Assembly (NCBI GenBank): GCA_046290225.1
Contig: JBKAGE010000080.1
Coordinates: 1-64,000, forward strand
Origin: Bradymonadia bacterium
GTDB taxonomy: Bacteria > Myxococcota_A > Bradymonadia > UBA7976 > UBA1532
Reading direction: 5' to 3'
Length of the DNA stretch: 64,000 nucleotides
Part shown: positions 1 through 59,300 of the stretch, one piece after another
How the letters are laid out: each line of letters opens with the position of its first letter
How positions within the stretch are numbered: the stretch's first letter is position 1
Translations under genes and position numbers: made by a program
Notes under the pieces: model-generated
What the model was told of the DNA's origin: nothing
The model's database searches: none
Seen by the model: only the letters and a program-made list of their open reading frames with translations

Positions 1-120
1 CCATCGCCCTGAGTCCAAGACAGGCCGCGGGTCCAGGTATGTATCAACTCGTGCCCGTGCCCGTGCCCGTGCCCGTGCCCGAAAACTCTCTCGCGAGCGC
101 AGCGAGACCGAAGCGAGTAC
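1..120 (+). mobile_element. Right part of GTGCCC-arm palindromic element (copy 1, truncated by window edge)
   Basis: GGTCCAGGTATGTATCAACTC-(GTGCCC)5-GAAAACTCTCT arm; bases 1-99 are identical to 1741-1839. Confidence 0.85.
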
Positions 121-148
121 ACCCACGGCGGCGGTACACCATCCGAGA

Positions 149-1285
149 TCAGTCAAGCTGTGCCAGCAACACCCGTGCAACCTCCGCAACCGCCGATTTA
201 CGCGAGCTCGTCAACGGCTGGACTGCAACCCGGACCGCGTCGTGGTCGAAGCGGAGCAGCATCGTACGCGCCATCTCCCGAACCCTGGCCGAGCCATCCC
301 CCAGAGCACGGGCGAGCTCGGGTATGGCCGCGTCGTCATCGGTGAAGCCGAGGGCACACACCAACCCCATGCGCGTCTTCGCACTGCCCTTGCCCACCTT
401 CTCGGCCAGGGCCGGCACCGCCGCGCCGCCCAACAGCGCGAACGTCTCCGCGATTCGGTTGGTCGAACCCCCCTCGGCTGTGCTGACCAGCTCGTCCCAA
501 CTCGTGTACTGCCAGCGATCTTTGTCGATCAACTCCTCGACAACGCGCCCCGCCCGCGCCTCGTCGGGTACAAAGCCCACCGTGTCCCAGTTCACTGGGC
601 CTTCTCCTGGCATCGTCAGATGAGTCACCGTCTCCAACGACAGACACATGGCCATGTCGCGCACCCGCTCCAGAACCTCAAGGCGCCTCTCGTGGGTCTG
701 AAAACCGTTGAACGTATAGTTCGCAATGAACCCTTCGAGGATGGCTCGGACGCTGTCCGAAGGCGCACGTGACATGCGTCGGTACAGTTCCATCACGGAA
801 AAACACAGGAGCTGATACACCTCGAAGTGCTCCGAGGTGTTTCCACCTGACATGCCCAGTGTCTCTCTGTCACCCCACTCTTCTGGCAACGACTCGAGTG
901 CCCCCTCGAGGCCATCCAGCGCGGCTTCTCCAAAGCGTGCAATGGCCTCCACGATCTCCCAGCGTGGGAAGATGTTGGACTCATGATAGCAAAGCAGCAC
1001 GGTGTGCGCGTGACGCGCGCCGACCATCTCCACCAGAGCCGTCACGCGGCTCCAGTACACGATCTGAACAGGCTCGTTCGACGTCAAAACCGACACGAGA
1101 GCCGCACTCCACTCCTTCTGTGAGACGTCGACCCCTTCTGGCAACTCGACTGGGCCATATGCGTCGAGTAAACGTTCACGTGCGATCTGCTCCAATTCTT
1201 GGGCGTGAGCCACTCGATTCACCTTTCTTTGGGCTTCGACCTCTCGTGGAGCCCACATGTGCTCGTCCTGCCCCACGGGGCTCAT
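149..1285 (-). CDS. HEAT/PBS-lyase-like repeat protein
   Basis: 378-aa ORF; C-terminal HEAT-like repeats (ALGFTDDDAAIPELARALGDGSARVREMA); start may be 1258. Confidence 0.6.
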   Translation of the reverse strand: MSPVGQDEHMWAPREVEAQRKVNRVAHAQELEQIARERLLDAYGPVELPEGVDVSQKEWSAALVSVLTSNEPVQIVYWSRVTALVEMVGARHAHTVLLCYHESNIFPRWEIVEAIARFGEAALDGLEGALESLPEEWGDRETLGMSGGNTSEHFEVYQLLCFSVMELYRRMSRAPSDSVRAILEGFIANYTFNGFQTHERRLEVLERVRDMAMCLSLETVTHLTMPGEGPVNWDTVGFVPDEARAGRVVEELIDKDRWQYTSWDELVSTAEGGSTNRIAETFALLGGAAVPALAEKVGKGSAKTRMGLVCALGFTDDDAAIPELARALGDGSARVREMARTMLLRFDHDAVRVAVQPLTSSRKSAVAEVARVLLAQLD

Positions 1286-1501
1286 AGAACTCGTGTGAGC
1301 AGCATAGTTGTAGAAAGAGTGCTCCGACTCAACGGGTTTGAGTGCCCATCCAGGTCCGGTCTGTATCGGCGATGTGCCCTCGTGGCGGGTGGCTCACATG
1401 CCTTATGGTGGAGTGAAGGATTCAGGGCTTGGTCGTGAGGGGATCAAGTTCGCCATTGAGGACATGACTGAGATTCGGCTTATGGTGATGAGGCTGCGGT
1501 A

Positions 1502-1849
1502 GTTCTCGCTTCGGTCTCGCTGCGCTCGCAGATCAGTTTTCGGGCACGGGCACGGGCACGGGCACGAGTTGATACATACCTGGACCCGTGGTCCTGCATG
1601 ACTCCGCTCACGGGTCTATAGATGGTAGAGGATCTAATCGGCCCCATGCGATTCTCAGTGTAGCTTTGTTGGCTGCCACATGGCTCCGAACCCGAACTTT
1701 CAGGCCATTCCGAAACATATCGAATCAGCCTCAATGACAACCATCGCCCTGAGTCCAAGACAGGCCGCGGGTCCAGGTATGTATCAACTCGTGCCCGTGC
1801 CCGTGCCCGTGCCCGTGCCCGAAAACTCTCTCGCGAGCGAAGCGAGTAC
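1502..1849 (+). mobile_element. GTGCCC-arm palindromic element (copy 2), MITE/REPIN-like
   Basis: Left arm (GGGCAC)4-GAGTTGATACATACCTGGACCCG and inverted right arm with (GTGCCC)5; internal spacer homologous to the other copies. Confidence 0.85.
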
Positions 1850-1893
1850 GCCCAACTTGTGAGACACTGACCCCCCACGACTCGGGAGGCACA

Positions 1894-4377
1894 ATGCGCC
1901 ACCTCACCTCGCTCCTGCTCACCCTCACGCTCCTCGCCTGTGACGACGGCGGCAACAGCGAAGCCCCCACCGGCGACGCGGGTACCCAGCCCACAGCAGA
2001 CATGGCCACAGGCGGCGCAGGCGGAGAGCCGGCAGCAGATGCCATGCCGCCTGATGCTGAGGCACCATCCGACGCAGATCTCCCCGATGCCGATCTCCCC
2101 GACGCCGCCCCCAAGGTGGAGCAACCCTTCGCCGAAACCGAGCCGGTGCAGGTGAGTCAGTGGCTCTATACCAGCCTCTCTGGGCAAGATCCCGTGGGCA
2201 ACGCCCTGGAGCAGGGCACCTTCATCGCCCCCGAGCGCCTGGGCCGCGACGATTTGGGCGTGGACTGGGCGCCGCTGTTCCCTCAAGACGATGGCGCCCT
2301 CATCAACGTCGACGCCGACGTGGGCTATGCCGTGGGCTGGGTGTTCACCGCAGAGTCAACATCGATGACTCTGCTTGCAGATCGCGCCTTCACCGTGTGG
2401 TTCAACGGCCGCCAGCTGCCCGGTGATGTCTACGGCTCCGGCAAACTGCGGGCGGCGCTGCACAGCAATGCAGGCGACAACGTCTTGGTGATTCAGTTCG
2501 CCGGCCGACGGGGCGCGCCGAGGGTGCAGCTCGCATCTACGACTGATCCTGTCTCAGTGAACCCTGCCGATCTCACCGTACCCGACCTGCCCGTGGGCGA
2601 AGGGTCTACCCAGCAGCTCACGCAATACATCGGCCTGCCCTTGCTCAACCACGGCGACGAAGCCCTGCTCGATGTTCGAGCACAGGTCATCGAAGACGAC
2701 CGCTTCGAGGGCACCGGGACTCGACTGCCGGGCCTCGCCCCTGGTGCGGCGACGCAGCTCGCCTTCGAGCTCACCCCAAAGGCAGCCTTTGATGCTGCCG
2801 AGGAGACCGTGGAGGTGTCCCTCGCTATCACCGCAGACAACCTCGGCACCATCTACACCACCACAGTGAGCCTGAGCACGGTGGCCGCCGACACCACCCA
2901 TCGACGCAGTCGCCGCTCGGAGGTCGATCACTCAGTGCAGTATTATGGCGCGGTGCCGCCCGTGGGTTTCGATCCGCAGGTCACGCCTGAGTCACCATAT
3001 GGCCTCGTGCTCAGCCTGCACGGCGCCGGTGTTGAAGGCATCGGCCAGGCCCGCGCTTACAGCGCCAAGGACAACGCGTGGATCATCGCCCCCACCAACC
3101 GACGCCCATTCGGCTTCGACTGGGAGGTCTGGGGTCGCCTCGACGGGCTCGAAGCCCTCGACCACGCCACAGCGACACTGCAGACAGACCCTGCCCGCAC
3201 GTGGCTCACCGGTCACTCCATGGGCGGTCACGGGACGTGGCACCTCGGGGTCATGGACACGAGCCGGTTCGCGGTCATTGCCCCGAGCGCCGGGTGGAGC
3301 AGCTTCTACTCCTACCAGGGGCTGCAGCGCCCTATGGGCGTCTTCGGTCGGGCCCGGGCGCCGAGCGACACCCTGAATTACATCGAGAACCTCGCTCAGC
3401 GAGCGGTCTAAATCATCCACGGCACCGCGGACAACAACGTGCCCATCCGCGAAGGGCGAGACATGCGAGCCGCAGTGGAAGGCGTCGCGGCTTCGGTTGA
3501 GATGCACGAGGAGGAAGGCGCTGGTCACTGGTGGGATGGTGATCGCGCCGGCGGCGCCGACTGTGTGGACTGGCCCCCAGCCTTCGAGTTGATGGCGGCC
3601 CGAACCCTGCCCCGGCCGGAGCTGACCTTCGACTACCGCTGCCCCGGGGCGTGGTATTGCCGCGCGTACGGTCCGGTCCGCTTGGACGCCGCAGAAGACT
3701 TCGAGCGGGATCTCTACATCTCTGCGGCTCCCATGGGCGACGCCGGCTGGGCCCTCACCACCGACAACGTGCGGCGCATGACCATCGACGGTGGAGCGCT
3801 CATCGATGCAGGTATCACCACCCTGCTCGTGGACGAGCAGATGTTCGAGGTGGAAGCAGGCCCCATGGTCATCGGCCCCACCGAGGGGAAGCGCCCTGGG
3901 CAGCACGGCCCGCTGGACGAGGCGTTCTATCGGCCTTTCTGTTTTGTCTACGACACCTCGACGCCGGCCTACGCCGAGATCGCTGCGCACCTGACCACAT
4001 ACTGGTCCTTCATCGGCAACGGACAAGCCTGCGCGGTGCCCTTTGATCTGATCAACAGTGCTGACTTGGATGGCTACAACCGCATCTACCTCGGAGTGCC
4101 AGCCGAAGACCTCGACGCCACGCCTGACGGCATCACCTGGGGCGGTGATACGATCACTGTGGGTGGAGAATCACAAAGCGAGGCGGCGCTGGTGGCGGTT
4201 TTCCCTGAAAGTGAGGGGCTCTCGGCCATCTTCTGGGCTACGCCGGGCCATGAATGGCTGCTCCCCCGGGCGAACCCCTTTGGGTCACGACGTAGTCTGC
4301 CGGACTATCTGGTGTTTGGCACTGATGGCGGCCGCGCAGCAGGGTTCTTCACGCCTGATTGGCGCCTCTCACGCTGA
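1894..4377 (+). pseudogene. Lipoprotein alpha/beta-hydrolase (prolyl oligopeptidase/esterase-like) interrupted by an in-frame TAA at 3409-3411
   Basis: Lipobox LLAC and nucleophile motif GHSMGG; the same frame continues after TAA as IIHGTADNNVP...GHWW (catalytic Asp/His) to 4377. Confidence 0.8.
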
Positions 4378-4478
4378 GTGAGAAAGATGTGACTCAAGGC
4401 GCCGAGGTCATGCCCCATGAAGTGTAGCTCATCAGCATACATTGAGTGTCTCGTACGCCAAGAGATCGATGTTGCTAT

Positions 4479-6170
4479 CTATGGACAGCCAGTATCGTTG
4501 AAGAACCGCTCCGGCACACAATACGGCTGGAACAGCTGAGGTCCAGGCACCGTGCAGCACGTGCCTTCGCCGAACTCCGCGGCGCACTCATTGGCCTCGA
4601 AGCACTCTCGGATACAGAACAGCCCCTGGTACAGACGGTCCTCGTCGAAAACCCCCAAGCACTCCAGGTCGTCTCGGCAGCCTTGCGCATCGCAGGGCTC
4701 ACCGGGGCCCGGTCGCAGATCTGCGTCGGGCAATTCCATGTCCGGCACCTCGGCGTCCGGAATCTCCACGTCGGGGATCTCCACATCGGGGATCTCCACG
4801 TCGGGCACCTCGGCGTCTGGAATCTCTACATCTGGCACTTCAACATCGGGCACCGACATATCATCGACGCTGACATCGGCCATCAACATCGCATCGGGTA
4901 CATCAATGTCTGGAATCTCAACGTCGGGTACGCCTTCGTCGATCATCTCCACGTCGGGCACATCAGCGTCAAACACCTCGGCGTCGGCGATCACACCACC
5001 ATCCGAGAACACGCCCGCGTCGAAGGTCTGCTCCAGATCGATGGTGGGTGCCGGCATGCGATCCGTGGCGATGGTGCCACCGCGGCCGCGATCGAAGCGG
5101 CCGCCCACCGTCCAGATGTCTTCACCGGACCAAACCGCGTGCAGTGTCGTCGGGCCGAAGAGTGCTGTGTTCGGCGCCACCAGAGCCGACCACTCCCCTT
5201 CGAGGCTCCGGGCCAGCAGCGTACCGTTCTCACCGCTGGCCAGGGCGCGGCCCGTGGGCTCGACGAAGACCCCGTTCAGCGCCACGTCGAGGGGGGGCGG
5301 ATCAGCGGTTTGCCATGCGAAGCCGTCCCAGCTGACAGCTCTTGGACGGTTGAGACCACCCACTGCCAGCGTCTGGCCACCGGGCAGGCCGTGCACCGTG
5401 AACAAGATCTCGGGCTCACCTGCAGGATCGACACGCTGGAACATGCGACCGTTCCAGAAGAAGGCCACCCCGCCTTCACCGACAATGTGCACCGCGTCGG
5501 GGGCCGAGCCCCAGACCTTGTAGAAGCTCACCGCAGGATCAGTCTGCAAGATGACGTCGTCCACGCGACGCCACACGCCGTCGCCTTCGGAGCGGAGCAC
5601 AATGTTGCGATCCCCGTCGGCTCGGGGCGAGCCGCCCACGGCCCAGAGATCGTCGGGGCCCGAGCCCCAGAGGCCCCACAGGCGGGTCTCTTCGGTGAGG
5701 CCCGTCTCTTCTTCGACCCAGCGGCCATCCCTGCGGCGCAGGATCCGACCCTCTTCGCCACAGGCCCAGACGTGATCGTCGTCGGTGCCCCAGATCCACC
5801 AGAGCGCGGGGCCCGGCGGGGTCGCCTCTCGGGCGATCTGCTCGCCATCGAAGCGGGCCACCAGGCCACCCTCGGGGCCCAAGGCGCCCCCGGCGAACCA
5901 GACCTGACCAGAGCCTGAGCCCCACACACCAAGGATCAACGGGTCGAACTCGCCGTCGATGGGTCGGATCTCACCAGGAGGCGGCTCGGCGTCGCGGAGA
6001 TCTGCGTCGGGGATCGGGCCCATGTCGGGGATCGGCGCCATATCAGCCACTGGGGGCACGTACCCCCCCGACTCCGCGTCGGATTGATCTTCTTCACAGC
6101 CCAGCAATGTCATGGACGCCGCCAGAGACATCGCCACGTACAAGCCCCTCATACCGCTCATTCCCCTCAT
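4479..6170 (-). CDS. Lipoprotein with WGSGPDDxWAVG beta-propeller-like repeats, acidic PDVEI linker and Cys-rich C-terminus
   Basis: Lipobox TLLGC; repeated (V/L)WG(S/T)xxDxxW motifs; ATGA overlap with the upstream gene at 6167-6170. Confidence 0.75.
   Translation of the reverse strand: MRGMSGMRGLYVAMSLAASMTLLGCEEDQSDAESGGYVPPVADMAPIPDMGPIPDADLRDAEPPPGEIRPIDGEFDPLILGVWGSGSGQVWFAGGALGPEGGLVARFDGEQIAREATPPGPALWWIWGTDDDHVWACGEEGRILRRRDGRWVEEETGLTEETRLWGLWGSGPDDLWAVGGSPRADGDRNIVLRSEGDGVWRRVDDVILQTDPAVSFYKVWGSAPDAVHIVGEGGVAFFWNGRMFQRVDPAGEPEILFTVHGLPGGQTLAVGGLNRPRAVSWDGFAWQTADPPPLDVALNGVFVEPTGRALASGENGTLLARSLEGEWSALVAPNTALFGPTTLHAVWSGEDIWTVGGRFDRGRGGTIATDRMPAPTIDLEQTFDAGVFSDGGVIADAEVFDADVPDVEMIDEGVPDVEIPDIDVPDAMLMADVSVDDMSVPDVEVPDVEIPDAEVPDVEIPDVEIPDVEIPDAEVPDMELPDADLRPGPGEPCDAQGCRDDLECLGVFDEDRLYQGLFCIRECFEANECAAEFGEGTCCTVPGPQLFQPYCVPERFFNDTGCP
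4731..4985 (-). repeat. Coding 15-bp tandem repeats encoding PDVEI/PDAEV pentapeptides
   Basis: Imperfect 15-nt periodicity within the lipoprotein ORF. Confidence 0.8.
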
Positions 6171-14343: not shown

Positions 14344-14528
14344 GAATCCAGGGCAGGCCATGGGTCCAGAGTCGAACAGTGGCCAGCCCTCCGGGTGTCT
14401 TTCCGCTCCCTCCGGCCGGCTACGCCGCCCTCCACTCGCTCCAAGACATGCAGCCTCAGGCTGCACTGTCCACATCCGTAAAACTCGTGCCCGTGCCCGT
14501 GCCCGTGCCCGTGCCCGAAACTCTCTCT
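14344..14528 (+). mobile_element. Half copy (right arm only) of the GTGCCC element, split by a ~95-bp imperfect palindrome
   Basis: GAATCCAGGGCAGGCCATGGGTCCAG (14344-14369) and AACTC(GTGCCC)5GAAACTCTCT match the right arms of the other copies; intervening insert at about 14376-14469. Confidence 0.75.
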
Positions 14529-27211: not shown

Positions 27212-29359
27212 ATGAAGCACTTTAACTTTACCCTGCACAGCCTGTTGCTCCTCGCAGCAGCGCAGCTCACAGGCTGCGCTCAGGGCACCGAAGAGGCACC
27301 CCTCGACGTGAGCGATGGCGTGCCTCTCACCCGGGAGATCGAGGTCAGCAAGGATCGCCTGGTCGAGGCACCGGTGAACCTCGAAGTGCAGCTCATCGAC
27401 TTGCTGCCTGGTGAGAGCCCGGAGGCGGCGATCCGCCGCGTATACGGCAACCTGCAGATCGTCAGCGACACCTCGATCCTCATCGAGGCGCAGCTCGAGG
27501 AGCAGGGCCTGCTCAACCCTCAAGGACAGACCGAGAACGATCCCGCCGCACAGGACGAGCAGCTCGATCTGGAGTCTGGCCCTCAAGGTGGGCCGCGCCT
27601 CGGGCAGCCATGTTTTGCCGAGAGCCAGTGGGGCACATGCGCTACGGGGCAGTCCTGCGCAGGCACCCCTGTGGGCAACATCTGTCAGGGTGATGGCGTG
27701 AGTTGCTGTATCGAGGCCTCGAACCCGCCCGAGCAAATGCCGCCCGAAGAGATGCCCCCAGAGCAAATGCCTCCAGAGCAGATGCCGCCTGAAGAGATGC
27801 CCCCAGAGCAAATGCCACCTGTGGGGGATGACATGGTGTGCAACAACAGCTGCTTCACCGCCAATGACGAGGTGTGTGACGACGGCGGCGAGGGCAGCAA
27901 CTTCGATGTCTGCCCCATGGGCACCGACTGCGCCGACTGTGGTCCTCGCCAACGAGGTGAGGCCCCGCGTCAGGGGCCGCCGCAGCCAGATCCGCCTCAG
28001 CAAGATCCGCCGCAGCAAGATCCACCGCAGCAAGATCCACCGCAGCAGGATCCCCCACGGCAGGACCCCCCGCAGCAAGATCCACAACAGCCTCCTCAAC
28101 AGCAGGCCCCTCAGGACAATGATCCTCTCGGCACGCGCTGCACCGCTCAGGGCGTCGCCGGCACCTGTCAGAACGTCGACCGCTGCCGGGACGGCGCCGG
28201 GCTGGAGCCCATCCCTGGCCATTGCCCGGGCGATCACACGGTGCAGTGCTGCATTCCACAAGCACAGCCTCAGAACAACACCAACAACCATGACGGCCAG
28301 CGGCCTTATGGCGCCGGTGAGGCATGCACCGCGTATGGTCAGCGGGGCGTGTGTGGCACCCCCAACGACTGCATGGGTGGCCGACGAGAGGCGGGGTTCT
28401 GTCCTGGCGACGACGACATCCAGTGCTGTCTCGAAGACAACGCGTCACAGCCTGCCCCTGGGCAGCTGCCGCAGCTTGGTCAGGCCTGTGTCGCCAACGG
28501 TGAGGCCGGCGTCTGTTCCCGTGTTCAGAGCTGCGCAGGCACCCCTACCCCGGGGTACTGCGCTGGAGACAACAGCATCCAGTGCTGCATCGAGGGTGAA
28601 GAGAAGCTTGCCTGGTTTGCCGTGCCACTGGTCATTGAAGGGGCCAGCCTGGCCATCGCCCTCTATCGCGGCTACCGCGCGGCCCGTCTCGTCGGCACCG
28701 TGATCACCACCACTCGAAATGCCCAGGCGGTGCGGGTGGGCATCTACACAGGTGCTCAGTCCATCGATCGCGCCCGCCGGCTCGGTTACGCAGGTGGACG
28801 CACACTGGAGAGCCGCATCGGCAATGTGGTGGACAACTTCTACAGAGCTGCTGCTCTCGCCGCCGCAGCGGAGCGGCTCAGCGACATGGGAGGCATGTGC
28901 CGCCCCGATGATCTCAACGCCTACAGTGATGGACGCCGGGACAGTGGCAGCTGCAGCCCGGAGGATCACTGCCAGCTCGCGAACATCAAAACGCAGAAGT
29001 GCGACCAGCAACCCCACAGCTGCAATGGCATCGGCGACAACCAGGTCAACAGCATCACCAGCCGGCTGCGGAACAACCCGAGCCTTGTCCTGCCCCCTAC
29101 GGAGCGCGAGCTCGTGAGGGCATGGTGTGAGCTCGCTCAGAGCAGAATCGACAACGGCGCCGAGTGCCTGGGCTGGCGGCAACGGATCAGCGAGGAGTGC
29201 TTCAGCGGTCGCCCAGATCCCCGCGATCACGCCAGCGCCGAGCAGCAGGTCCTCGACGCGGGGAACAGGTGTCGCCGCAGCATGGAGCGAAACCTGTGCG
29301 ACAACTTCCTCTCCAACGCACTCATGCGACTCGACATCGGTCCTGTCGATCTGGACTGA
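27212..29359 (+). CDS. Lipoprotein with Cys-rich repeats and an Ntox16-like C-terminal domain (putative polymorphic toxin)
   Basis: Lipobox LTGC; four C..G.C....C...G.CPG...QCC repeats; CDDGG...GTDCADCGPR module; C-terminal C..C..C/R..I..CF.G....H pattern. Confidence 0.7.
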   Translation: MKHFNFTLHSLLLLAAAQLTGCAQGTEEAPLDVSDGVPLTREIEVSKDRLVEAPVNLEVQLIDLLPGESPEAAIRRVYGNLQIVSDTSILIEAQLEEQGLLNPQGQTENDPAAQDEQLDLESGPQGGPRLGQPCFAESQWGTCATGQSCAGTPVGNICQGDGVSCCIEASNPPEQMPPEEMPPEQMPPEQMPPEEMPPEQMPPVGDDMVCNNSCFTANDEVCDDGGEGSNFDVCPMGTDCADCGPRQRGEAPRQGPPQPDPPQQDPPQQDPPQQDPPQQDPPRQDPPQQDPQQPPQQQAPQDNDPLGTRCTAQGVAGTCQNVDRCRDGAGLEPIPGHCPGDHTVQCCIPQAQPQNNTNNHDGQRPYGAGEACTAYGQRGVCGTPNDCMGGRREAGFCPGDDDIQCCLEDNASQPAPGQLPQLGQACVANGEAGVCSRVQSCAGTPTPGYCAGDNSIQCCIEGEEKLAWFAVPLVIEGASLAIALYRGYRAARLVGTVITTTRNAQAVRVGIYTGAQSIDRARRLGYAGGRTLESRIGNVVDNFYRAAALAAAAERLSDMGGMCRPDDLNAYSDGRRDSGSCSPEDHCQLANIKTQKCDQQPHSCNGIGDNQVNSITSRLRNNPSLVLPPTERELVRAWCELAQSRIDNGAECLGWRQRISEECFSGRPDPRDHASAEQQVLDAGNRCRRSMERNLCDNFLSNALMRLDIGPVDLD
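27725..28081 (+). repeat. Coding 15-bp tandem repeats (PPEQM x6 and PPQQD x~7)
   Basis: Direct 15-nt periodicity at 27725-27814 and about 27977-28081. Confidence 0.85.
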
Positions 29360-33819: not shown

Positions 33820-33866
33820 GACTGACGATGTATCCGCAATCAGGTGGCCCCACTGAGCCCCCGATC

Positions 33867-34127
33867 ATGCTGCGCAGCTTGCGCTATGCGCTCATCAGCT
33901 TCTTCGTCTGCGCCATCGTGGTGGCGGGGCTGGTGACGCCCTTTCGGGATCTGGTCATCGGCAACCGCACGCTGTCGATGCTGATGATGATGGCCCCCCT
34001 CATCATCAGCTTCCCCTTTGCCTTTGCTGTGGGGTTGATGGCCCGGAAGCACAATCTGACGTTGTTCCCGGCCATGGGGGCGGTGTTTCGGGTGATTACG
34101 TTTCGTAAGGCGGTGAAGGGGGGCTGA
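33867..34127 (+). CDS. Small two-TM hypothetical membrane protein
   Basis: Two hydrophobic segments; start 33867 or 33828. Confidence 0.55.
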   Translation: MLRSLRYALISFFVCAIVVAGLVTPFRDLVIGNRTLSMLMMMAPLIISFPFAFAVGLMARKHNLTLFPAMGAVFRVITFRKAVKGG

Positions 34128-34129
34128 GG

Positions 34130-34468
34130 GGGCGCTCCGCGGGTAAGAGAGTTTGTCGGGCACGGGCACGGGCACGGGCACGGGCACGAGTTGATACATA
34201 CCTGGACCGGTGGCCCTTCCTGGATTCAGGGCGCAGGTTGTCATTGAGGCTGAGATGGTGCGCTTCAGAACAGCCTGAGAATTCAGGTCTTGGGGTGTAT
34301 GGAGGTCAAAAGCCTCCATTGAGAAGTAGGTGGGGCCAAGCAGAGCCTCCACCATCCCAAACCTACGAGCAGAGTCATACAGGGCCACCGGTCCAGGTAT
34401 GTATCAACTCGTGCCCGTGCCCGTGCCCGTGCCCGTGCCCGAAAAACTCTCTTACCCGCGGAGCGCCC
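34130..34468 (-). mobile_element. GTGCCC-arm palindromic element (copy 4, internal spacer reversed)
   Basis: 88-bp inverted arms at 34130-34217 and 34381-34468 with one mismatch; spacer is a reverse-complement homolog of the other copies. Confidence 0.9.
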
Positions 34469-43387: not shown

Positions 43388-43741
43388 ATGGGTAACAAAC
43401 TTTTCGTAGGCGGGTTGGCCTGGGCCACTTCTGATGAGAGCCTCCGCGAAGCCTTCGAGCAGTTCGGTGAGGTCGCCGACGCCAAGGTGATCACCGATCG
43501 CGAGACCGGCCGCAGCCGCGGCTTCGGTTTCGTCACCTTCGCCGAGGGTGGCATCGCTGCAACGGCCAAGGAGGCCATGGACGGTGCTGAGCTCGATGGT
43601 CGTCGCATCCGTGTCGACGAGGCTGAGGATCGCCGTGGTGGTGGTGGCGGCGGCGGCGGTCGTGGCGGTCGTGGCGGCGGTGGCGGCGGCGGTGGCTACC
43701 GCGGTGGTCACGGCGGCGGTGGCGGCGGTGGCCGCTGGTAA
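43388..43741 (+). CDS. RRM RNA-binding protein with Gly/Arg-rich tail
   Basis: RNP2 LFVGGL; RNP1 RGFGFVTF. Confidence 0.95.
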   Translation: MGNKLFVGGLAWATSDESLREAFEQFGEVADAKVITDRETGRSRGFGFVTFAEGGIAATAKEAMDGAELDGRRIRVDEAEDRRGGGGGGGGRGGRGGGGGGGGYRGGHGGGGGGGRW

Positions 43742-51172: not shown

Positions 51173-51433
51173 GGTCTTGAGATCTCTCACCGCCTCGACG
51201 GCGGCATCGATGCTGCTCAACACCCGCCGCGCATGCCGTAAAAAGACCTCCCCCTCCGGCAAAAGCGTGACCCCTTTCGAGGTGCGCTCGAACAGCGGGG
51301 TGCCCAGCTCATCTTCCAGGGCCCGCAGGTGTCGAGTGAGAGGCGGTTGAGATACATGCAATCGCTCTGCGGCTCCACGGAGGCTGCCCTCTTCGGCGAT
51401 GGCGACGAAGTATTCGATTTGGTGCAGGCTCAT
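51161..51433 (-). CDS. LysR-family regulator, HTH-only (90 aa)
   Basis: YFVAIAEEGSLRGAAERLHVSQPPLTRHLRALEDELGTPLFERT; ends after the linker helix; GGAGG RBS. Confidence 0.85.
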   Translation of the reverse strand: MSLHQIEYFVAIAEEGSLRGAAERLHVSQPPLTRHLRALEDELGTPLFERTSKGVTLLPEGEVFLRHARRVLSSIDAAVEAVRDLKTSAD

Positions 51434-51449
51434 GGGCCCTCCTTCATGA

Positions 51450-51790
51450 AGAGAGAGTTTCGGGCACGGGCACGGGCACGGGCACGGGCACGAGTTGATT
51501 CGGGTGTGGACCCGTGGCCCTGCATGACTCCGCGCGTGGGTTTGTGGTGGTGGAGGCTCTACTCGGCCCCAGCAACTTATCAGTGGAGGTTTTTGCGCTC
51601 AATGCGCCCCATGTGCAAACGGGAACATGGTTTACAGATCTGGCGAGAGCTGAACTCTCATGGCCTTCTGAAGCGTATCAACTCAGCCTCAATGACAACC
51701 ATCGCCCTGAGCTCAGGATGGGCTGCGGGTCAACATATGTATCAACTCGTGCCCGTGCCCGTGCCCGTGCCCGTGCCCGAAACTCTCTCT
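51450..51790 (+). mobile_element. GTGCCC-arm palindromic element (copy 5)
   Basis: AGAGAGAGTTTC(GGGCAC)5GAGTTGAT...ATCAACTC(GTGCCC)5GAAACTCTCTCT; homologous spacer. Confidence 0.88.
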
Positions 51791-51794
51791 ACCG

Positions 51795-51809
51795 ATACCC
51801 AATCGGTAT
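51795..51809. promoter_or_regulatory. LysR recognition box ATAC-N7-GTAT
   Basis: ATACCCAATCGGTAT matches the BenM/CatM-type T-N11-A consensus and lies between the divergent lysR and map. Confidence 0.6.
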
Positions 51810-51845
51810 TGGACACCCACCCACCTTCCCGTCACCCTGTGCCGC

Positions 51846-52613: not shown

Positions 52614-54156
52614 CGACGCTCACCGCAGCGGGTCGCTCGGCGAGCACCTTCCGGGCGGCGGCGATGCCTGACATCAGACAGGGCGCCACGCCACCCCCGT
52701 ACACGCCGGCGCCGGCGAGATAGAGGCCTTCGACCGGGGCCTTGGTTCGGAAGCGTCTGCGACCATACTGGTCGAGGGTGGCCGCGGGGCCATACGCGGC
52801 CCCTTCGACCGCGCCGGCGTAATGAGTGTTGGTCAGGGGTGAGGCCACCTCTTCCACCACCACATCGCCCACGAGACCTGGCCAACGATCTTCCACCGCC
52901 CCCATGAGCTGGGCCGCCACCTCATCCTTGAGCTGGTTGTAATCATCTCCGCGTTTGAACGACTTGCTGTCGGCCCACTGCGCAAAGGGCGCATGAGGAC
53001 ACAGCGTCACCACCTCGAGGGTGCTCCCCCCAGCAGGGGCCATGGAGTTGCTGTCGTCCTTGAGAGAGTTCGGCGACAAAAAGAAGAACCACTCCTCGGG
53101 GATCTTGCCCTCAAAGGCCGGCGCATAGAGCCGCTCGAGATCGAAGTGGGGGTAGTCCCAGACGTTGAAGGCTCCGAGGCCGTGTTTGCTGAGATCACGC
53201 TGCATGCCCAGGAACACGCACACGCTGCCCACCGAGGATTCGGTGTTGTCGACCTTGGTCTGCAGCCGCTCGCTCAGCGTGCCCTCGGGGAGCAGCTTGC
53301 CCAGGGTGAGGGTGGGATCGATGGCCGAAACGACGATGTCAGCGTCGATGCGCTCTCCCGTGGTGAGGGTGACCCCTGAGACCCGGCCATTGTCGAGCTC
53401 GATGGAGGCCACGGCCGCCCGGCGGCGATAGCTCGCCCCGAGGCTGCGACCACGCTCCACGAGGGCGTCTCGAAAGACCCCACTGCCCCCACGGGGGAAC
53501 CACGCGCCGCTGGCGTAGTGCATCATGAGCCCCATGCCCAGCACCGCCGGGGTGCGGCTCGGCGGCAGCGCATAGTCACCACACTGACCGGCGAGCACTG
53601 AGCGCAGCTCCGGGTTCTTGATGTACTCCGCGAGCAGCTCGGCGAAGCTGCGCTCAAGCCACTTCGCTGCAAACGAGAGCCCCGTGACGGCACCGAGATC
53701 ACCGATACGCCGCGAGGCCCCGATGGTCTTGCGGGAGATGAAGTTCGACACTCGATCAAAACGCTTGAGCACCTTGAAGAGCTTGTCGATGTCGCCCTTG
53801 TCTTCGGGGAACTGCGATCGCAGCCGCTGGCGATAATTGTCGATGCCCTTGGGCACCCTCACCTCGAGGCCCGGGAATCGGATCATGTCGAGGCAATCGT
53901 CGTCCATGGGGCAGAAGAGCTGCTGGGCGTCGAGGCCGAGCTTCTCCAGGGTGAGGGTCATGCTCTGCCCCGGGCCAAGCTGTCCGATGTAGTGCACGCC
54001 CGGGTCGAAGTGGTAGTGCCGGCGAGCGAAGGGGTTGAGGAATCCTCCGAGCTGTTTGGCGGCCTCGAGGGCGACGACATCGTGCCCCTGCTCGGCGAGG
54101 CCGATGGCCGCGGCGAGCCCCCCGGCCCCGGTTCCGATGACGACAGCTTTCGACAT
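52579..54156 (-). CDS. Phytoene desaturase/retinol saturase-like FAD oxidoreductase
   Basis: VVIGTGAGG, FDPGVHYIG, FPRGGS, SPLTN..Y....GAAYG, GLYLAG. Confidence 0.88.
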   Translation of the reverse strand: MSKAVVIGTGAGGLAAAIGLAEQGHDVVALEAAKQLGGFLNPFARRHYHFDPGVHYIGQLGPGQSMTLTLEKLGLDAQQLFCPMDDDCLDMIRFPGLEVRVPKGIDNYRQRLRSQFPEDKGDIDKLFKVLKRFDRVSNFISRKTIGASRRIGDLGAVTGLSFAAKWLERSFAELLAEYIKNPELRSVLAGQCGDYALPPSRTPAVLGMGLMMHYASGAWFPRGGSGVFRDALVERGRSLGASYRRRAAVASIELDNGRVSGVTLTTGERIDADIVVSAIDPTLTLGKLLPEGTLSERLQTKVDNTESSVGSVCVFLGMQRDLSKHGLGAFNVWDYPHFDLERLYAPAFEGKIPEEWFFFLSPNSLKDDSNSMAPAGGSTLEVVTLCPHAPFAQWADSKSFKRGDDYNQLKDEVAAQLMGAVEDRWPGLVGDVVVEEVASPLTNTHYAGAVEGAAYGPAATLDQYGRRRFRTKAPVEGLYLAGAGVYGGGVAPCLMSGIAAARKVLAERPAAVSVVSPSPDPQGAT

Positions 54157-54229
54157 GGTGCAACTCCTCGACCAGACCCTCTGAGGTACCGTGCGCGCAA
54201 CCTCGCACGTCATGCATGCTCCATCAGGT

Positions 54230-54997
54230 ATGCGCTCAGCACAATACGACCACCTGCAAAATGTCTGTATCCAGGGTGCCAGCCGGGGCATCGGCCTCGC
54301 CCTCGTCGGCCGCATGCTTCAACGGCCTTCCGTAGGCCATGTCATCGCCACAGCGCGTCGGCCCGAGGCCTCGGAGGGGCTCTTCGCCCTCACCCAGCGC
54401 CATCCGGACCGCCTCATCACCCTCACTGTAGATGTCACCGACGAAGGCTCGATGGCTGAAGCTGCCCGGATCTCCACAGCGCGGGTGGGGCGTTTGCACC
54501 TGCTGATGAACGTCGCGGGTCTGCTCCACGCCCCCGACGGTATGGCGCCCGAGAAACGCATCGAGGCCCTCGATCCCGGTTTTCTGGCGCGCGCGTTCGC
54601 CGTGAACGCAACGGGGCCAGCGTTAATGGTTAAACACATGCTCCCGCTACTCCGGCACGACGAGCGGGCAGTCATCGCCAACCTCTCGGCACGGGTGGGC
54701 AGCATCGAGGACAACGGCCTCGGGGGCTGGTATGGCTACAGGGCGTCGAAGGCTGCGCAGAACCAGCTCACCCGCACCCTGGCCATCGAGCTGCGGCGTC
54801 GGGCAAAGCACGTGATCTGCGTGGCATTGCATCCCGGCACGGTGGACACAGCGCTCTCACGACCTTTTCGAGGCGGGGCGAAGCGCCGCTTCACCCCCGA
54901 CGAGGCCGCAGGCCATCTGCTCGACGTGATCGATGGCCTGGGCCCGGAAGACACTGGGGCGTTCTTCGCTTGGGACGGTTCACGGATCCCCTGGTGA
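54230..54997 (+). CDS. Short-chain dehydrogenase (CsgA/C-factor-like subfamily)
   Basis: GASRGIG, SARVGSI.DN.LGGWYGYRASKAAQN, LHPGTVDT. Confidence 0.9.
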   Translation: MRSAQYDHLQNVCIQGASRGIGLALVGRMLQRPSVGHVIATARRPEASEGLFALTQRHPDRLITLTVDVTDEGSMAEAARISTARVGRLHLLMNVAGLLHAPDGMAPEKRIEALDPGFLARAFAVNATGPALMVKHMLPLLRHDERAVIANLSARVGSIEDNGLGGWYGYRASKAAQNQLTRTLAIELRRRAKHVICVALHPGTVDTALSRPFRGGAKRRFTPDEAAGHLLDVIDGLGPEDTGAFFAWDGSRIPW

Positions 54998-55199
54998 GAA
55001 ATCCTGGCATAACCGTTCTTGTCGCCAAATATGCATCGCTGTTGAGGTCAACCAAACGAAGGTGCCCGATGGGCAACTCTTCTTCGCTCTGCTGTTTTGT
55101 CAACAGCCTCCAAATCAGAGGAATACAGGCTCTTCTTATGGTGTATCTGATACGAGAGCCTCCGAGAGGCGAGGGCTCTTGTGGATTGGGGAGATACAC

Positions 55200-56219
55200 A
55201 TGGCAGACGATCAGGCACTGACCGGCCCAGACATTGAGCGGCTGGTCAAACGCTACCATCTTGAGCGTGCACGATACGAGCAGGCTGCAGTACAAGTCGG
55301 CACCCGTATCAGTGCTGCGCTGAGGCGCGAGGCCCGCCTGAGATTCATGATCTCGACCCGGGCCAAACATCCTCAGGACCTCAAAGGTAAGCTCCATCGC
55401 AAGCGCGAAAATCCGAAATATACATTCGCGGCGCTTGACGAAAACCTCAACGCCATCGTCAACGACCTGGCTGGATGCCGTGTCGTAGTTTACTCCGCTG
55501 AAGATCTACAGCAGGTGACTCGGATCATCGATGGCCTGTTCGACATCCCAGATCTGCCAGATACACACCTCGACAAGAGCCAGGAAAAAGAAGGGTACCG
55601 TGCTACCCATCGGCTCGTAGCCCTCCCGAATGATGAGAACTCGTCAACATCAGGGGCGATCTGTGAAGTGCAAATCTGTACCGTCGCAGCTCACCTGTTC
55701 AACGAGCTTGAGCATGACATCACGTATAAAACACATGGGGTGAAACCAACCCCGGAAGCCTGTTCGTTGCTCGATGATCTGCGATGGCTCTCTCTGGTGT
55801 CTGATCACACAGCAAGTCGCCTGATTCAGGCACAACAAGTCGCACGCGCCAACATGGAAGAGCTGACCTCACCGGATACGCTCAGATTTGCCCTTGAAGG
55901 CGCTCTCGGACGCCCCATGAGTGGTGACTTCACACGCCTACTGTCACTGCTTGGCTCCATATTGGAGACCGTGAATCTCAGCATCCTGCACTCTTTGGGA
56001 GGCGTCCACCAGCTTCTGAAATGCGGACGAGCGCTTTCACACACATTATCTCTCGAACACACCGATGATGTGATCTACATCACGCTGGGACTCACCGAGC
56101 AATTCGGCGAGGAGCTCGTCGAGCTCTCCTCGATGTGGTCAAAGCCCGAGCTGCCTCTGAGAGCAGCACTGCTCACATGGGCATCTGCTAGGTCAACTGT
56201 GCACGAGAGCGCTGAATGA
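55200..56219 (+). CDS. RelA/SpoT-domain small alarmone synthetase-like protein with C-terminal extension
   Basis: RAKHPQDLKGKLHRK, DLAGCRVV, GYRATH, EVQICT..HLFNELEHDITYK; GGGGAG RBS before ATG 55200. Confidence 0.85.
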   Translation: MADDQALTGPDIERLVKRYHLERARYEQAAVQVGTRISAALRREARLRFMISTRAKHPQDLKGKLHRKRENPKYTFAALDENLNAIVNDLAGCRVVVYSAEDLQQVTRIIDGLFDIPDLPDTHLDKSQEKEGYRATHRLVALPNDENSSTSGAICEVQICTVAAHLFNELEHDITYKTHGVKPTPEACSLLDDLRWLSLVSDHTASRLIQAQQVARANMEELTSPDTLRFALEGALGRPMSGDFTRLLSLLGSILETVNLSILHSLGGVHQLLKCGRALSHTLSLEHTDDVIYITLGLTEQFGEELVELSSMWSKPELPLRAALLTWASARSTVHESAE

Positions 56220-56257
56220 GGCACACTGCCTGTGTCGATGCAAACAAGGAGATCCAC

Positions 56258-56773
56258 ATGGCCCCTCGCTTGACCATCACCAACGCCATCGAAGCACTGG
56301 AGAAATTCAACCAGCGCTATGACACACTGGATGTGTTCGCGGACGACCTTTACGAACTCCAACAATTCAGACGGGATGGCTCACCTCCACCAGGGCTGCA
56401 GGTCAGTGGAAGCCATACACTCACGGTTGTCGACACCCCCTATGAAATTGAACTCCTTCCTGAGAATGGGGTCGCGCGCATTCAACGGGTTCGTTCATCT
56501 GTCAGCCCTCACAAAATCATCGCAGGGGCAGCGATCGGGGGCATCATCGGCGCGACCCTCGAAACGGCTGTGACAGAAAAGGAGGGTGTCGGTGCCCTCG
56601 GCCTACTCCTCGGCCTGCTCGTTGGAGGTACTCTTGCTTCACATCAGAGCACAGCCCCGAGCGTTCGACGGGTCTTCACCCTCAACTTCGACTCAGAAGA
56701 GCAAAAGTGGAGGGCCTATGATGGTGGCCTCGTAGATTGGATGAAGATGAAACTGTTGCCCGCTGCCTCATGA
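56258..56773 (+). CDS. Hypothetical protein with two glycine-zipper TM helices
   Basis: AAGGAG RBS (alternative ATGA-coupled start at 56216); GAAIGGIIGA and GALGLLLGLLVGG. Confidence 0.75.
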   Translation: MAPRLTITNAIEALEKFNQRYDTLDVFADDLYELQQFRRDGSPPPGLQVSGSHTLTVVDTPYEIELLPENGVARIQRVRSSVSPHKIIAGAAIGGIIGATLETAVTEKEGVGALGLLLGLLVGGTLASHQSTAPSVRRVFTLNFDSEEQKWRAYDGGLVDWMKMKLLPAAS

Positions 56774-58878
56774 GCACCCTGGAAGCACAGCAAGCGGCAA
56801 CCACCATAGACATGGATCTCGACGATCTGCTCGAGCTATACATCGACGACGCCCTCAAGGCCCTCGATCGAGAGACCGCCGAGCGCAAACAGCTCCGGGC
56901 CGCCTTCGAATCGGGCACTCCGCTCACCGCCAAGGTGCAGCTCGATCTCTACGATCCGATCGACGGTGAGATCGTCACCGTCCCTGCCGGCGCAGTGGTG
57001 CACGTGGCCGAGCACCAAGGCGACATTTTGATCGGCAAGCTCTCCGACAACACCCACAGCCTCGCCGTCGTCTACGAGCCCCCGGGTCGTTGGATCCCCC
57101 GAAAGCACTTTCTGCCCCTGAGCACACTCGTCGATCGCACCCGCATCACTCAAGGCGAGTCACCGAGCGTGAAGAGCGCGGGCCCCGGTGGCTTCAAAGG
57201 CGCCGGCCTCAAGGGCCTCGACGATGGCACCGCCCTGGCGATCCAGAGCATCGACGCCCTGAACGCCCGAGACGCCTTCGCTGTGCTGCCTCGGGGCACC
57301 CGGATTTTGATCGACGCCGCTCAATTGCAGCTCGAAGAGGGCGCCCCGACCCCAAGCGGTGAGATTTGGGTAGAGGTCACCGCCGCCGTGGGCGACGTGC
57401 GTGACAAAGCGGGCGTCACCGAGATGCCCGAGATCCCGATCCGCATCACTGGGGGTCCTTCGGGCACCCTGCCCTTCGAGGCGCTGCAGCCGCTGAGCTT
57501 CAAGACCCACGTGCTCACCCCCGTGGCCTACGCCCAATATCTGGTGGAGCAGCGGGGCCGTCGGCGGTTCTTGCGGCGGATGACCGGCGCGGGCCTCGCC
57601 GCAGCCTTCCTGGCCATGGACGGCATCTGGTGGACCACTTCGAAGGCGGAGTGGCCCCCCAACGCACCTCCTGCAGATCGGGTGCTCTCGGCGATGATCC
57701 CTCAGCTCGGCGCCTTGCTGGGCTACCTGCGGGCCGGCGGCAAGTACTGGTTCGAGCTCGACGGCCCGCTGATGTCGCTCAGAGAAGCCCGCCGCGGCCC
57801 CGCTGTACGTGCGCTCTCCGACGCCCTCGATCAAATCGCAGCCATCTCGGATCACACATGGGATCTCTGGCGTGGCGCGTTCTATCGCCGAGTGCACGTG
57901 GGCTGGAACGAGCACAAACACTATCGCACTGACAAAGACGGCAAACGGACTTACACCCACTCCACCTGGACCAAGAGCTACCGCAAGATCTGGTGCGAGC
58001 CCCCCGGACTCTCGGGCACCTGGTCCGTGCTCCAAGACTGGGACACAGCGGATGACTGGCGTCGCTCCAAGGGGCATCGCATGCTCAACGTGCCCATCTT
58101 TCAGCTGCTCGAATGCACCCCAGAAGAAGCAGAGTCCCAGTTTCGCACCATGCGGATGGACGTCTCCTTCGCTCGGGAGGCCACGATCTCCGCGGTGACG
58201 GCAGCCCTGTGCAGCGCCCCGGCGGCCTTCTACAGCGACATCCTCGGGGCCTTCAACGGCGTTTCTCAGATGCCCCACCCTGCCCAGAGCCGCTTCCCCG
58301 CTCAAAAGCCAGCCTTGCTGGCTATGGGGGCCATCGCTGGGGCCTTCATCGCTCAGAGCAGTCATCGAAAGCAGGCTGCGGAGCTGGGTCAGAACAAGAA
58401 GGCCCTCGGCGCGCTGCTCGAAACGCAGCTGCGTACGGTGCCGGAGATGGACTTCGAGCAGGCCTGGAATGCTTTCTTTGGGATCCCGAGCTCACAGGCG
58501 GTGGTGCAGACCACTGCCGAGCGCGGCCCGGAGACCCACGATCTGGGCCGCCGCGCTCAGAGTTTCACGTATGTGCACAGCGGAGGGTTCGACCGAGGGC
58601 GGCCGCTGGACTCGATCTACGTGGATGCTGGGCCGGTGAAGACCTACTTCCCGGAGATCGCCCAACGATGGGGACAGGCGTCACAGGCGCTCGCTGACGC
58701 GTTGCGCGAAGCGGAGGTGTTGTTGCCTGTGCTTCAGAACGTGGTGGGTACTGATATTCTCAATGCCCGGATCCGGGAAGATGCCTCTGAGGCCAGCAGC
58801 GGTGGATGGAAGCAATCGCTGTGGTTCGCGGCGCCGATTTGGGGTGCTGCGTTGCTTGATGGATTGCTCAAACGCTGA
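56770..58878 (+). CDS. Hypothetical 702-aa membrane-associated protein with internal RRRFL motif
   Basis: ATGA overlap with the upstream gene; host-like codon usage; GRRRFLRRMTGAGLAAAFLA near residue 262; further hydrophobic segments. Confidence 0.7.
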   Translation: MSTLEAQQAATTIDMDLDDLLELYIDDALKALDRETAERKQLRAAFESGTPLTAKVQLDLYDPIDGEIVTVPAGAVVHVAEHQGDILIGKLSDNTHSLAVVYEPPGRWIPRKHFLPLSTLVDRTRITQGESPSVKSAGPGGFKGAGLKGLDDGTALAIQSIDALNARDAFAVLPRGTRILIDAAQLQLEEGAPTPSGEIWVEVTAAVGDVRDKAGVTEMPEIPIRITGGPSGTLPFEALQPLSFKTHVLTPVAYAQYLVEQRGRRRFLRRMTGAGLAAAFLAMDGIWWTTSKAEWPPNAPPADRVLSAMIPQLGALLGYLRAGGKYWFELDGPLMSLREARRGPAVRALSDALDQIAAISDHTWDLWRGAFYRRVHVGWNEHKHYRTDKDGKRTYTHSTWTKSYRKIWCEPPGLSGTWSVLQDWDTADDWRRSKGHRMLNVPIFQLLECTPEEAESQFRTMRMDVSFAREATISAVTAALCSAPAAFYSDILGAFNGVSQMPHPAQSRFPAQKPALLAMGAIAGAFIAQSSHRKQAAELGQNKKALGALLETQLRTVPEMDFEQAWNAFFGIPSSQAVVQTTAERGPETHDLGRRAQSFTYVHSGGFDRGRPLDSIYVDAGPVKTYFPEIAQRWGQASQALADALREAEVLLPVLQNVVGTDILNARIREDASEASSGGWKQSLWFAAPIWGAALLDGLLKR

Positions 58879-58948
58879 GTGCAGGTCTCAATGCCCGTAG
58901 AGTGGTCAGATGGATGTACATTGATGACTGATGCTCTCCTTGCCTCTC

Positions 58949-59300
58949 GATGTGGGGCTCGCTCCGCGGGCAAGAGAGTTTTTCGGGCACGGGCACGGGC
59001 ACGGGCACGGGCACGAGTTGATACATACCTGGACCCGTGGTCCTGCATGGCGCCGCTCCTAGGCTCTTGGTGGTGGAGGTTCTACTCGGCCCCATATATC
59101 TCTCATTGGAGGTTTTGGCCTCCATACACCCCAAGAACTGAACGAACTGAGAGTTCAGGCATACATCATCTCAGCTCAATGACTGCCTTCGTCCTGAGTT
59201 TAGGATGGGTCACGGGTCCAGGTATGTATCAACTCGTGCCCGTGCCCGTGCCCGTGCCCGTGCCCGAAAACTCTCTTGCCAGCGGAGCGCTCCCCATATC
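58949..59300 (+). mobile_element. GTGCCC-arm palindromic element (copy 6)
   Basis: Inverted arms extending to GATGTGGGG/CCCCATATC; (GGGCAC)5/(GTGCCC)5; homologous spacer. Confidence 0.9.

Follow-up and report, generated by a model that had tools for sequence, protein, structure and literature searches.

Bacterial MITEs are short, non-coding elements with inverted ends that are present in many copies. The ORF-bearing intervening sequences (IVS) of 23S rRNA from Coxiella and Leptospira, as presented in the abstract and Introduction of PMC4990558, harbor an S23p/PF05635 gene and stem-forming ends. Quadruplex repeats of GGGAATC in Xanthomonas are described in passages of PMC4692102 as intergenic, located close behind stop codons, with a modal number of 4-5 copies and a frequent arrangement in inverted pairs, of which Xcc has 70. 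Among the repeats that Rehm et al. list (PMC4692102), one (GGGAATC)4 extends over the start of XCC0516, the four-helix-bundle gene that encodes the 2GSC protein. GRINS, in the part of PMC8256042 considered here, are duplicated stretches within genes, having skews of both signs and tied to gene conversion. No description of gene-less hairpin cassettes of the kind presented below was found in the literature.

The window (the whole stretch of 64,000 nucleotides analysed here, which is the start of contig C80) harbors six related loci, all of them lying where the earlier note had placed them. Copy 1 (1..118, no strand assigned) is truncated by the contig start and consists of a right arm and a spacer tail with (GTGCCC)5 at 51-80; bases 1-106 coincide with bases 1741-1846 of the window, in copy 2, at 105 of 106 positions. 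The two-armed copy 2 (1500..1849, plus strand) has arrays at 1542-1565 and 1791-1820, a 217-nt interior and CTCGCT-type hairpins at its outer ends, and is flanked by divergent genes. Copy 3 (14344..14528, no strand assigned) is a single arm with an array at 14487-14516. It is indeed a half copy, as supposed earlier, but instead of the usual spacer it holds a separate 101-bp module (about 14371-14471) together with an inner stub. Copy 4 (34130..34468, minus strand) is two-armed, with arrays at 34158-34187 and 34411-34440; its 215-nt interior is reversed, which bears out the occurrence of both orientations, and the private variant CCGGTGG is common to both arms (88 nt, 99% complementary). Two-armed copy 5 (51450..51790, plus strand; arrays at 51462-51491 and 51749-51778) has a 34-nt insertion in its 249-nt interior and is devoid of the outer hairpin. 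Its left core was mistaken for a degenerate one in the earlier note: it is TGATTCGGGTGT, the most frequent core allele (21 of 96 arms), and the allele given there as the core is found in 9 of 96 arms. Copy 6 (58949..59300, plus strand) is two-armed, with arrays at 58985-59014 and 59236-59265, a 213-nt interior and 60-nt arms of 100% complementarity; the z-score of its predicted fold is -19.9 (against 100 shuffles). The gene contexts are as varied as was claimed, copies 4 and 5 being located between co-directional and copy 6 between convergent genes. With 10 arrays where 0.95 would be expected, the window is ~10 times as dense in arrays as the genome on average.

In the whole genome (assembly 99.4% complete, 83 contigs) there are 127 arrays of at least three GGGCAC/GTGCCC units, 110 of them with at least four, against 7 arrays of the next hexamer class. 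They form at most 98 clusters (47 two-armed, 29 one-armed within contigs, 8 one-armed at contig ends and 14 stubs truncated by an insertion), or ~85 once split copies are merged, which is short of the hundreds of copies anticipated earlier. None of 48 two-armed copies falls inside a called gene. The non-coding interior has a fixed length of 214 nt and can be extended by 101-bp modules; the predicted folding of its central part is weak, with a mean z of -1.3 on one strand and -1.1 on the other, and an Rfam scan of the window gave no match. A decayed gene was considered as the source of the spacer and rejected, since there is no codon periodicity (0.15, 0.18, 0.16) and the consensus frames are broken or unremarkable. 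Beyond 35 nt from the array no flank similarity between copies was detected. Of 48 copies, 18 have the same 12-nt core in their two arms against 3.5 expected (maximum of 11 in 20,000 permutations), the outer 30 nt are also matched between the arms of one copy (p = 5e-5), and linkage among variants drops to background in 10-20 nt. The arms within a copy are homogenised, while the copies are mosaics of one another. Copies of the same contig are no more similar in the spacer than others (13 vs 452 pairs).

A longer copy enclosing a gene of a four-helix-bundle protein, for which the earlier note advised to look, is found at G000:C72:82299-83329. It shares the outer end, arrays and core with the family, has two 101-bp modules in each arm, and its arm type is that of copy 3. 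The gene is an intact ORF of 117 aa with GGAGG ahead of the start. Its product matches PF05635 with 76.8 bits (cut-off 33.8), TIGR02436 with 71 (cut-off 24) and PDB entry 2GSC with E of 9e-11. Such an S23p ORF within the stem is present in one of 48 two-armed copies and in none of the window copies. Judging from the shared sequence, the six window loci are gene-less relatives of this four-helix-bundle cassette. Both PF05635 matches of the genome sit within arms of high-copy palindrome families. The second one is located inside family B, which has ~36 gene-less copies; this gene is frameshifted, yet the copies are younger (mean identity 85%), and the third family, C, has no gene-bearing copy at all. 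Thus, a family can do without an intact gene of its own, which is counted against the explanation preferred below. The spacers of B and C match each other in nhmmer searches, which revealed no spacer homology of the GGGCAC family to either.

The association of PF05635 with such arms extends beyond this genome. Homologues from several phyla have inverted flanking arms at 48 of 79 scored loci vs 0 of 142 shifted controls (48 of 59 loci after removal of 20 extra copies of one assembly and one truncated locus), and 46 of the 48 consist of GGGCAN/GGGAAC-type units, mostly as GGGCAC-like hexamer arrays. Dense (GGGCAM)4 arrays occur in three of 28 genomes of the taxonomic family, all three with a PF05635 gene inside such arms and gene-less pairs adjoining. 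The arm hexamer of G005 is confined to one of the 28 genomes and is found there at the PF05635 gene and also at a single shorter pair with a separation of 195 bp. Flanking arms are missing from five PF05635 genes of G006 and G008, which likewise weighs against that explanation. G019 and G110 represent one genus and possibly belong to the homologous-locus set as well, hence the sets are not independent. The protein tree (58 rows, quick method) is mostly unresolved, and neither donor nor order of events is claimed from it. Scans of metagenomes with two arm patterns gave 0 matches each; among viral contigs there were 43 array matches, all of them unpaired and lacking a four-helix gene.

As for mobility, the family is dispersed and non-coding, as proposed in the earlier note, and lineage-specific: the spacer is present in none of 27 relatives of the taxonomic family, and the orthologous gltX-pccB junction in G007 is empty. 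Present-day mobility is not upheld, as even the best pair among 34 interiors has at most 91% identity. The absence of target-site duplication was confirmed (shared flank words are no longer within than between 47 copies). Together with the lack of a Y1/RAYT gene in the assembly it speaks against membership in MITEs or REPINs. No IS110 transposase was found in the assembly either. What the longest two-armed copies enclose is either the four-helix gene or an intruding IS4-like element that has ends of its own.

The host genes beside the elements are C-poor on the strand read toward the element over ~300 bases. This halo is positive at 92% of 98 arms, with a mean of +0.26 vs +0.02 for 2,210 control gap sides. 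In genes ending <100 nt from an arm the four-fold sites contain 16-21% C (control 45%) and 48-57% G (32%), and the skew returns to background at 500-1000 nt; genes starting at an arm exhibit the mirror image (C 64%, G 12-21%). Of 60 genes that end at an arm, 50 have more G than C, vs 26% of 5,862 genes. In the window, the halo is seen beside copy 1 (119..392, minus strand, 3' end of a HEAT-repeat-like gene; G-C residual +0.29, 52 four-fold sites), copy 2 (1850..2132, minus strand, 5' end of the gene 1894-3411; +0.32 on the strand toward the element, 53 sites), copy 4 (33846..34129, plus strand, gene ending at 34127; +0.44, 49 sites) and on both sides of copy 6 (58673..58948, plus strand, gene ending at 58878, +0.38, 38 sites; 59301..59577, minus strand, gene ending at 59395, +0.24, 31 sites). 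Residues with C-rich codons are also reduced at C-termini (Pro 0.70, Gln 0.79 and Thr 0.80 of background, 2,040 residues).

The halo is indifferent to gene direction and replication strand (p = 0.32), and an origin on the lagging strand only was rejected, as the leading/lagging difference is absent. At 24 arms in G019/G110 the same polarity toward the element is kept although that of the array is reversed, so the G-quadruplex strand was rejected as the sole cause for paired copies. Families B and C carry the halo too; therefore, it is not specific to the GGGCAC family. Compared with orthologues, the end of pccB is the most C-depleted of 18 and aldehyde dehydrogenase the most of 8, while for gltX 4 of 17 orthologues are more C-depleted at the 3' end than the gene of the window genome; the relatives are too distant for exact empty sites. 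It could be that the halo partly reflects site preference. Raw GC skew revealed no halo outside 38 reversed-polarity cassettes of other phyla, and the strength of the halo does not track divergence from the consensus (n = 30). Around solo arrays, unlike paired copies, the GGG strand is rich in G to either side, a pattern that the mirror model does not explain.

The explanation to which we give somewhat better than even chances is that the loci are gene-less members of a PF05635-bearing palindrome family, likely kept and spread by host hairpin repair. On this reading, they derive from an IVS-like cassette and are devoid of its gene, and repair set off by the hairpins has reworked and probably also dispersed them. 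The arms would extrude as a hairpin or cruciform; when the hairpin is cut or DNA synthesis stalls, the 3'-ended strand on each side would become single-stranded for some hundred bases, and cytosines may be lost from this flank. The halo is likely the scar of repeated hairpin opening and repair. Repair templated by the partner arm or another copy would homogenise the arms and shuffle the alleles, and on rare occasions the same repair may place a copy or one arm elsewhere in the genome, for the most part directly after a stop codon. By analogy with RAYT for REPINs, the four-helix-bundle protein would be the resident factor of the cassette; it is possible that the C72 protein is a mere passenger. 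No clear polarity is seen among substitutions in the 31 interiors of standard type, which is counted against this explanation, as are the possible site preference, the cassettes of other phyla, the solo arrays and the lack of a relation of the halo to divergence, replication strand or one family. A more far-reaching version is a mobile system free of transposase: one resident four-helix gene would service dozens of gene-less hairpins, in the way of RAYT and REPINs, and every round of processing would expose single-stranded flanks, so that the neighbouring host genes are steadily recoded, even in their C-terminal amino acids. It is put forward only tentatively, as less likely than not.

A REPIN-like element moved by a lost or unassembled HUH (RAYT/TIRYT) transposase, with the four-helix gene captured between its arms, seems unlikely. 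Inverted arms with a spacer and no target duplication agree with it, as does the location of 17 of 37 copies at convergent gene ends (17% in the background). In the sister families B and C the hairpin arms are tagged with GTAG, end motifs are shared with the GGGCAC family, and many repeats remain unassembled at contig ends. However, PF01797 and NF047646 give no match in an assembly that is nearly complete, and the arms, 60-330 nt long, vary at their outer ends and are not marked by a constant GTAG. The occurrence of the same hexamer arms with the same protein clade across phyla would not be expected from chance capture.

Quite unlikely is a domesticated element with a structural role, be it as a stabiliser of mRNA 3' ends, an RNase III site or a G-quadruplex, the skew being due to selection or site choice and not to mutation. 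The arrays have a modal length of five units (89 of 127) and 486 of 492 units are perfect, with GGG tracts enough for a quadruplex as in the passages on Xanthomonas (PMC4692102). Although identity is 76%, 31 of 48 copies keep an interior of 212-217 nt, and many arms lie directly next to a stop codon (12 at a distance of up to 4 nt). Nevertheless, the skew tracks the arm and not the transcript, with the mirror image where genes start at the arm, and is accompanied by a depletion of Pro, Gln and Thr; its polarity survives array reversal, the G005 arms contain no GGG tract, and the spacer is oriented independently of transcription (11 to 6).

Very improbable is RNA-based spread, for which an Avd-like protein would have to enlist a reverse transcriptase of the host and the flanks would be replaced by error-prone cDNA. 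PF05635 is presumably related to the DGR accessory protein Avd, the genome has two reverse transcriptase genes, and the distance-decaying gradient might resemble cDNA integration; but variation is not adenine-specific (A>G 0.10, T>C 0.12, G>A 0.10, C>T 0.08 per cell), both genes lie on an array-free contig, and the halo is symmetric regardless of transcription direction. A MITE of a DDE insertion sequence has terminal inverted repeats and dispersed copies in both orientations as here, but is already largely refuted and hardly credible in view of the missing target duplication, ragged ends, 0 of 561 interior pairs above 95% identity, and insertion sequences that entered the copies later (one with its own 9-bp duplication).

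The family joins the common protein family PF05635, paired G-rich microsatellites and local strand-biased recoding, all unexplained, in one testable object, and the ~100 arms of one genome provide a natural dose-distance curve for localised mutation. If true, the transposase-free reading would give PF05635 a function and would explain paired G-rich microsatellites, e.g. GGGAATC of Xanthomonas. In contrast to bacterial MITEs, there are no target duplications, fixed ends or an autonomous IS sharing ends, and in contrast to a diversity-generating retroelement neither adenine-specific variation nor a linked reverse transcriptase. Like GRINS (PMC8256042, as cited in part above), the family shows a recoding of protein-coding DNA that is skewed by strand and goes along with gene conversion, but here the skew has a single direction, lies in unique host DNA and forms a gradient around an extragenic palindrome. 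With the GGGAATC repeats it has in common tandem GGG units, the modal number of 4-5, stop-codon proximity and inverted pairing; it differs by a hexamer instead of a heptamer, a conserved spacer and modular arms, and the passages of PMC4692102 hold no link to a gene cassette, mobility or flanking skew. REPINs with RAYT/TIRYT, in the parts of PMC3116915 and PMC3733652 considered, are likewise dispersed extragenic inverted-arm hairpins with a spacer and one gene-bearing locus between such repeats; the main text of PMC3733652 contains neither 'S23' nor 'helix bundle'. In the present family this locus encodes a four-helix bundle and not an HUH transposase, of which none was found in the assembly, and the arms are longer, microsatellite-bearing and without a fixed GTAG or CGTC tag. 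As in the 23S rRNA IVS, complementary ends form a long stem (here by predicted folding), which in one of 48 two-armed copies, that of C72, encloses a PF05635 gene; flanking skew is not described for the IVS in the abstract and Introduction of PMC4990558. Unlike the IVS, the GGGCAC family is located between protein genes and not in an rRNA gene, its arms are built of hexamer arrays and 101-bp modules, and its gene-bearing copy is accompanied by dozens of gene-less ones.

All six palindrome loci that the earlier note had claimed for the window are present as described. The window covers the opening 64 kb of contig C80 in the G000 assembly (8.58 Mb, 64.4% GC, 83 contigs, 99.4% complete), which contains 127 GGGCAC arrays of at least three units, most commonly of five (89 arrays); the next hexamer class has 7. 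The census gives 98 array clusters in total: 47 two-armed, 29 one-armed and contig-internal, 8 one-armed at contig ends and 14 stubs cut by insertion. Because 10 clusters hold the other junction of the same array-targeting insertion, merging leaves ~85 palindrome loci. The hundreds of copies proposed earlier are thus not borne out: the window is about tenfold enriched in the family compared with the genome, and the extrapolation was therefore misled. Genes were called with a hexamer-scored ORF finder (5,863 genes, 85% coding; individual gene boundaries may be inexact). Where it placed a gene on each side of a copy (37 copies), the neighbours are convergent in 17 cases, co-directional in 17 and divergent in 3 (background 17%, 64% and 19%). 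Window positions 1-106 (copy 1) and 1741-1846 (copy 2) are identical at 105 of 106 bases, far above other copies, and bracket a HEAT-repeat-like gene (149-1285); this near-identity may stem from a recent conversion event or from assembly at the contig end. The 15-bp and 9-bp tandem repeats in window coding regions 4711-4985, 27725-28114 and 43619-43732 are ordinary low-complexity protein segments.

From outside to inside, the arm is formed by an optional small hairpin (CTCGCT.. type, in 63 of 99 arms scored), AGAGAGTTTTC or AGATCAGTTTTC, (GGGCAC)5, GAGT, a variable 12-nt core and GACCCGTGGCCC. The interior measures 212-217 nt in 31 of 48 two-armed copies; in eight further ones its length (313-316, 417-418 or 515 nt) equals the standard one with one, two or three 101-bp modules added. 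Mean identity among the 34 interiors measuring 200-220 nt is 75.6%, with none of their 561 pairs above 95%. Neither codon periodicity nor an adenine bias in the variation is seen in the interiors, and folding of the central spacer is weak. Two copies, copy 5 (window 51597-51630) and G000:C12:5877-6230, have their spacer interrupted by related 34-nt inserts. Target duplication is undetectable across 47 copies, which upholds its reported absence.

The longer copy with a four-helix-bundle gene between its arms, suggested earlier as something to look for, was found at G000:C72:82299-83329. Its ends, arrays and core match those of gene-less copies, each arm carries two 101-bp modules, and it encloses an ORF of 117 aa preceded by a ribosome-binding motif; the product scores above the cut-offs of PF05635 and TIGR02436 and has a match in PDB 2GSC. 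The window half copy (14344-14528) is an arm of this type. The second and last PF05635 match in the genome is frameshifted and lies inside arms of another palindrome family, B, in which 36 of 39 arm pairs enclose a 117-128-nt non-coding spacer. Family B comprises G000:C77:107011-107853 (L101) and 38 other pairs, its arms (~185 nt, GTAG-tagged) flanking a 124-nt spacer. Family C (22 pairs) differs in its arms and has a spacer homologous to that of B; one copy of each carries the same extra ~170-nt spacer insert (G000:C34:360670-361333, C78:372536-373096), and both families have end motifs in common with the window's family.

Among the best 80 homologous PF05635 loci (Chlamydiota, Planctomycetota, Myxococcota, Acidobacteriota, Legionellales and others), inverted flanks are found at 48 of 79 scorable loci versus 0 of 142 controls. 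One assembly supplies 21 loci, most of them apparently carried on an IS; with 20 of these and one truncated locus dropped, the fraction is 48/59. The C-rich array is upstream in 38 of the 48, 8 have G000-like polarity and 2 lack such units. A Chlamydiae assembly (CAWCVY01, L014-L062) has at least 21 copies of a four-helix-bundle gene with its downstream arm, and two inspected copies come after an apparent IS5-type transposase end. In the host family, PF05635 is present in 5 of 27 relatives (12 loci), with arms at 7 loci (G019, G110, G005) and none at 5 (G006, G008). Dense (GGGCAM)4 arrays are confined to G000, G019 and G110 among 28 genomes, three more having 1-2 matches; the spacer was found in none of the 27 relatives searched, several of which are <90% complete. 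The genes gltX and pccB flank a copy in G000 and are separated by only 16 bp in G007, another relative. Inverted array pairs, apparently in frame, lie inside a recB-like gene (named from motifs) in two relatives (L256, G019:C50; L259, G110:C117), and the content at this same site differs.

In 18 of 48 copies, versus 3.5 expected, the two arms share an identical 12-nt core, rare alleles included. Outer arm ends resemble each other within a copy as well (p = 5e-5), flanks >35 nt out do not (p = 0.64), and linkage between copies decays within 10-20 nt. Selection for pairing may alternatively account for the arm homogenisation. Copying between arms and between loci fits both the homogenisation and the mosaicism.

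In host DNA outside each arm, the strand read toward the element has a high G+T content. At four-fold degenerate sites this cytosine deficit, or halo, tracks the arm rather than the gene and declines over a distance of 300-500 nt. It is seen in 50 of 60 genes ending at an arm (p = 4e-21), across a set of 25 genes reading away from one (p = 3e-6) and in 92% of 98 arms (controls +0.02); in the window 8 of 9 matched arms are positive, one slightly, and the single negative arm has 6 sites. Replication strand has no effect. Families B (+0.20) and C (+0.11) exhibit the halo, a further family, D, hardly any. In G019 and G110, with reversed arrays, it is still polarised toward the element, and the G000 gene end is the most C-depleted in 2 of 3 orthologue sets, gltX being the exception. 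Against generality count 38 cassettes from other phyla, around which raw skew reveals no halo, the lack of clear polarity inside the spacer and the G-rich flanks on both sides of solo arrays.

Cytosine is lost in single-stranded DNA, and SbcCD cleaves palindromes. The halo polarity would correspond to exposure, on both sides, of the strand whose 3' end lies at the element, as resection after a cut at the hairpin would produce; a gap behind a stalled polymerase could be another source. Repair templated by the partner arm or by a different copy would produce homogenisation and mosaics; new insertions might use the same route, and the four-helix-bundle protein might have a role. The G000 assembly (99.4% complete, 83 contigs) contains no RAYT gene. 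Two convergent reverse transcriptase genes, retron-like by eye, lie at G000:C79:178718-180977 (L093) on a contig without arrays.

Palindromes are themselves interrupted. GGGCAC arrays are the specific site of a multi-copy insertion that is not assembled, with 14 left junctions (C6, C7, C8, C13, C17, C22, C40, C55, C57, C59, C72, C77, C78, C82) and 10 right ones (C4, C5, C29, C35, C37, C41, C47 twice, C51, C67) at G000 contig ends. With an apparent GG core, a short subterminal repeat and no terminal repeats it resembles an IS1111/IS110-type element (cf. PMC11187229); no IS110 transposase is assembled in G000. At G000:C50:55564-57122 the spacer is invaded by an IS4-like transposase gene with a 9-bp duplication, and copies at C10, C39 and C46 are interrupted by other IS ends.

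The palindrome cassette family is real, and no description of it or of the halo was found in the openly accessible literature. Xanthomonas quadruplex repeats parallel the GGGCAC arrays, a four-unit repeat at the XCC0516 start being listed there without an inverted partner (PMC4692102), and the recoding of flanking genes is reminiscent of GRINS (PMC8256042). The organisation is like that of REPINs, from which the family differs in being without RAYT (PMC3116915, PMC3733652), and the build is like that of ORF-bearing IVS, from which it differs in not residing in rRNA (PMC4990558).
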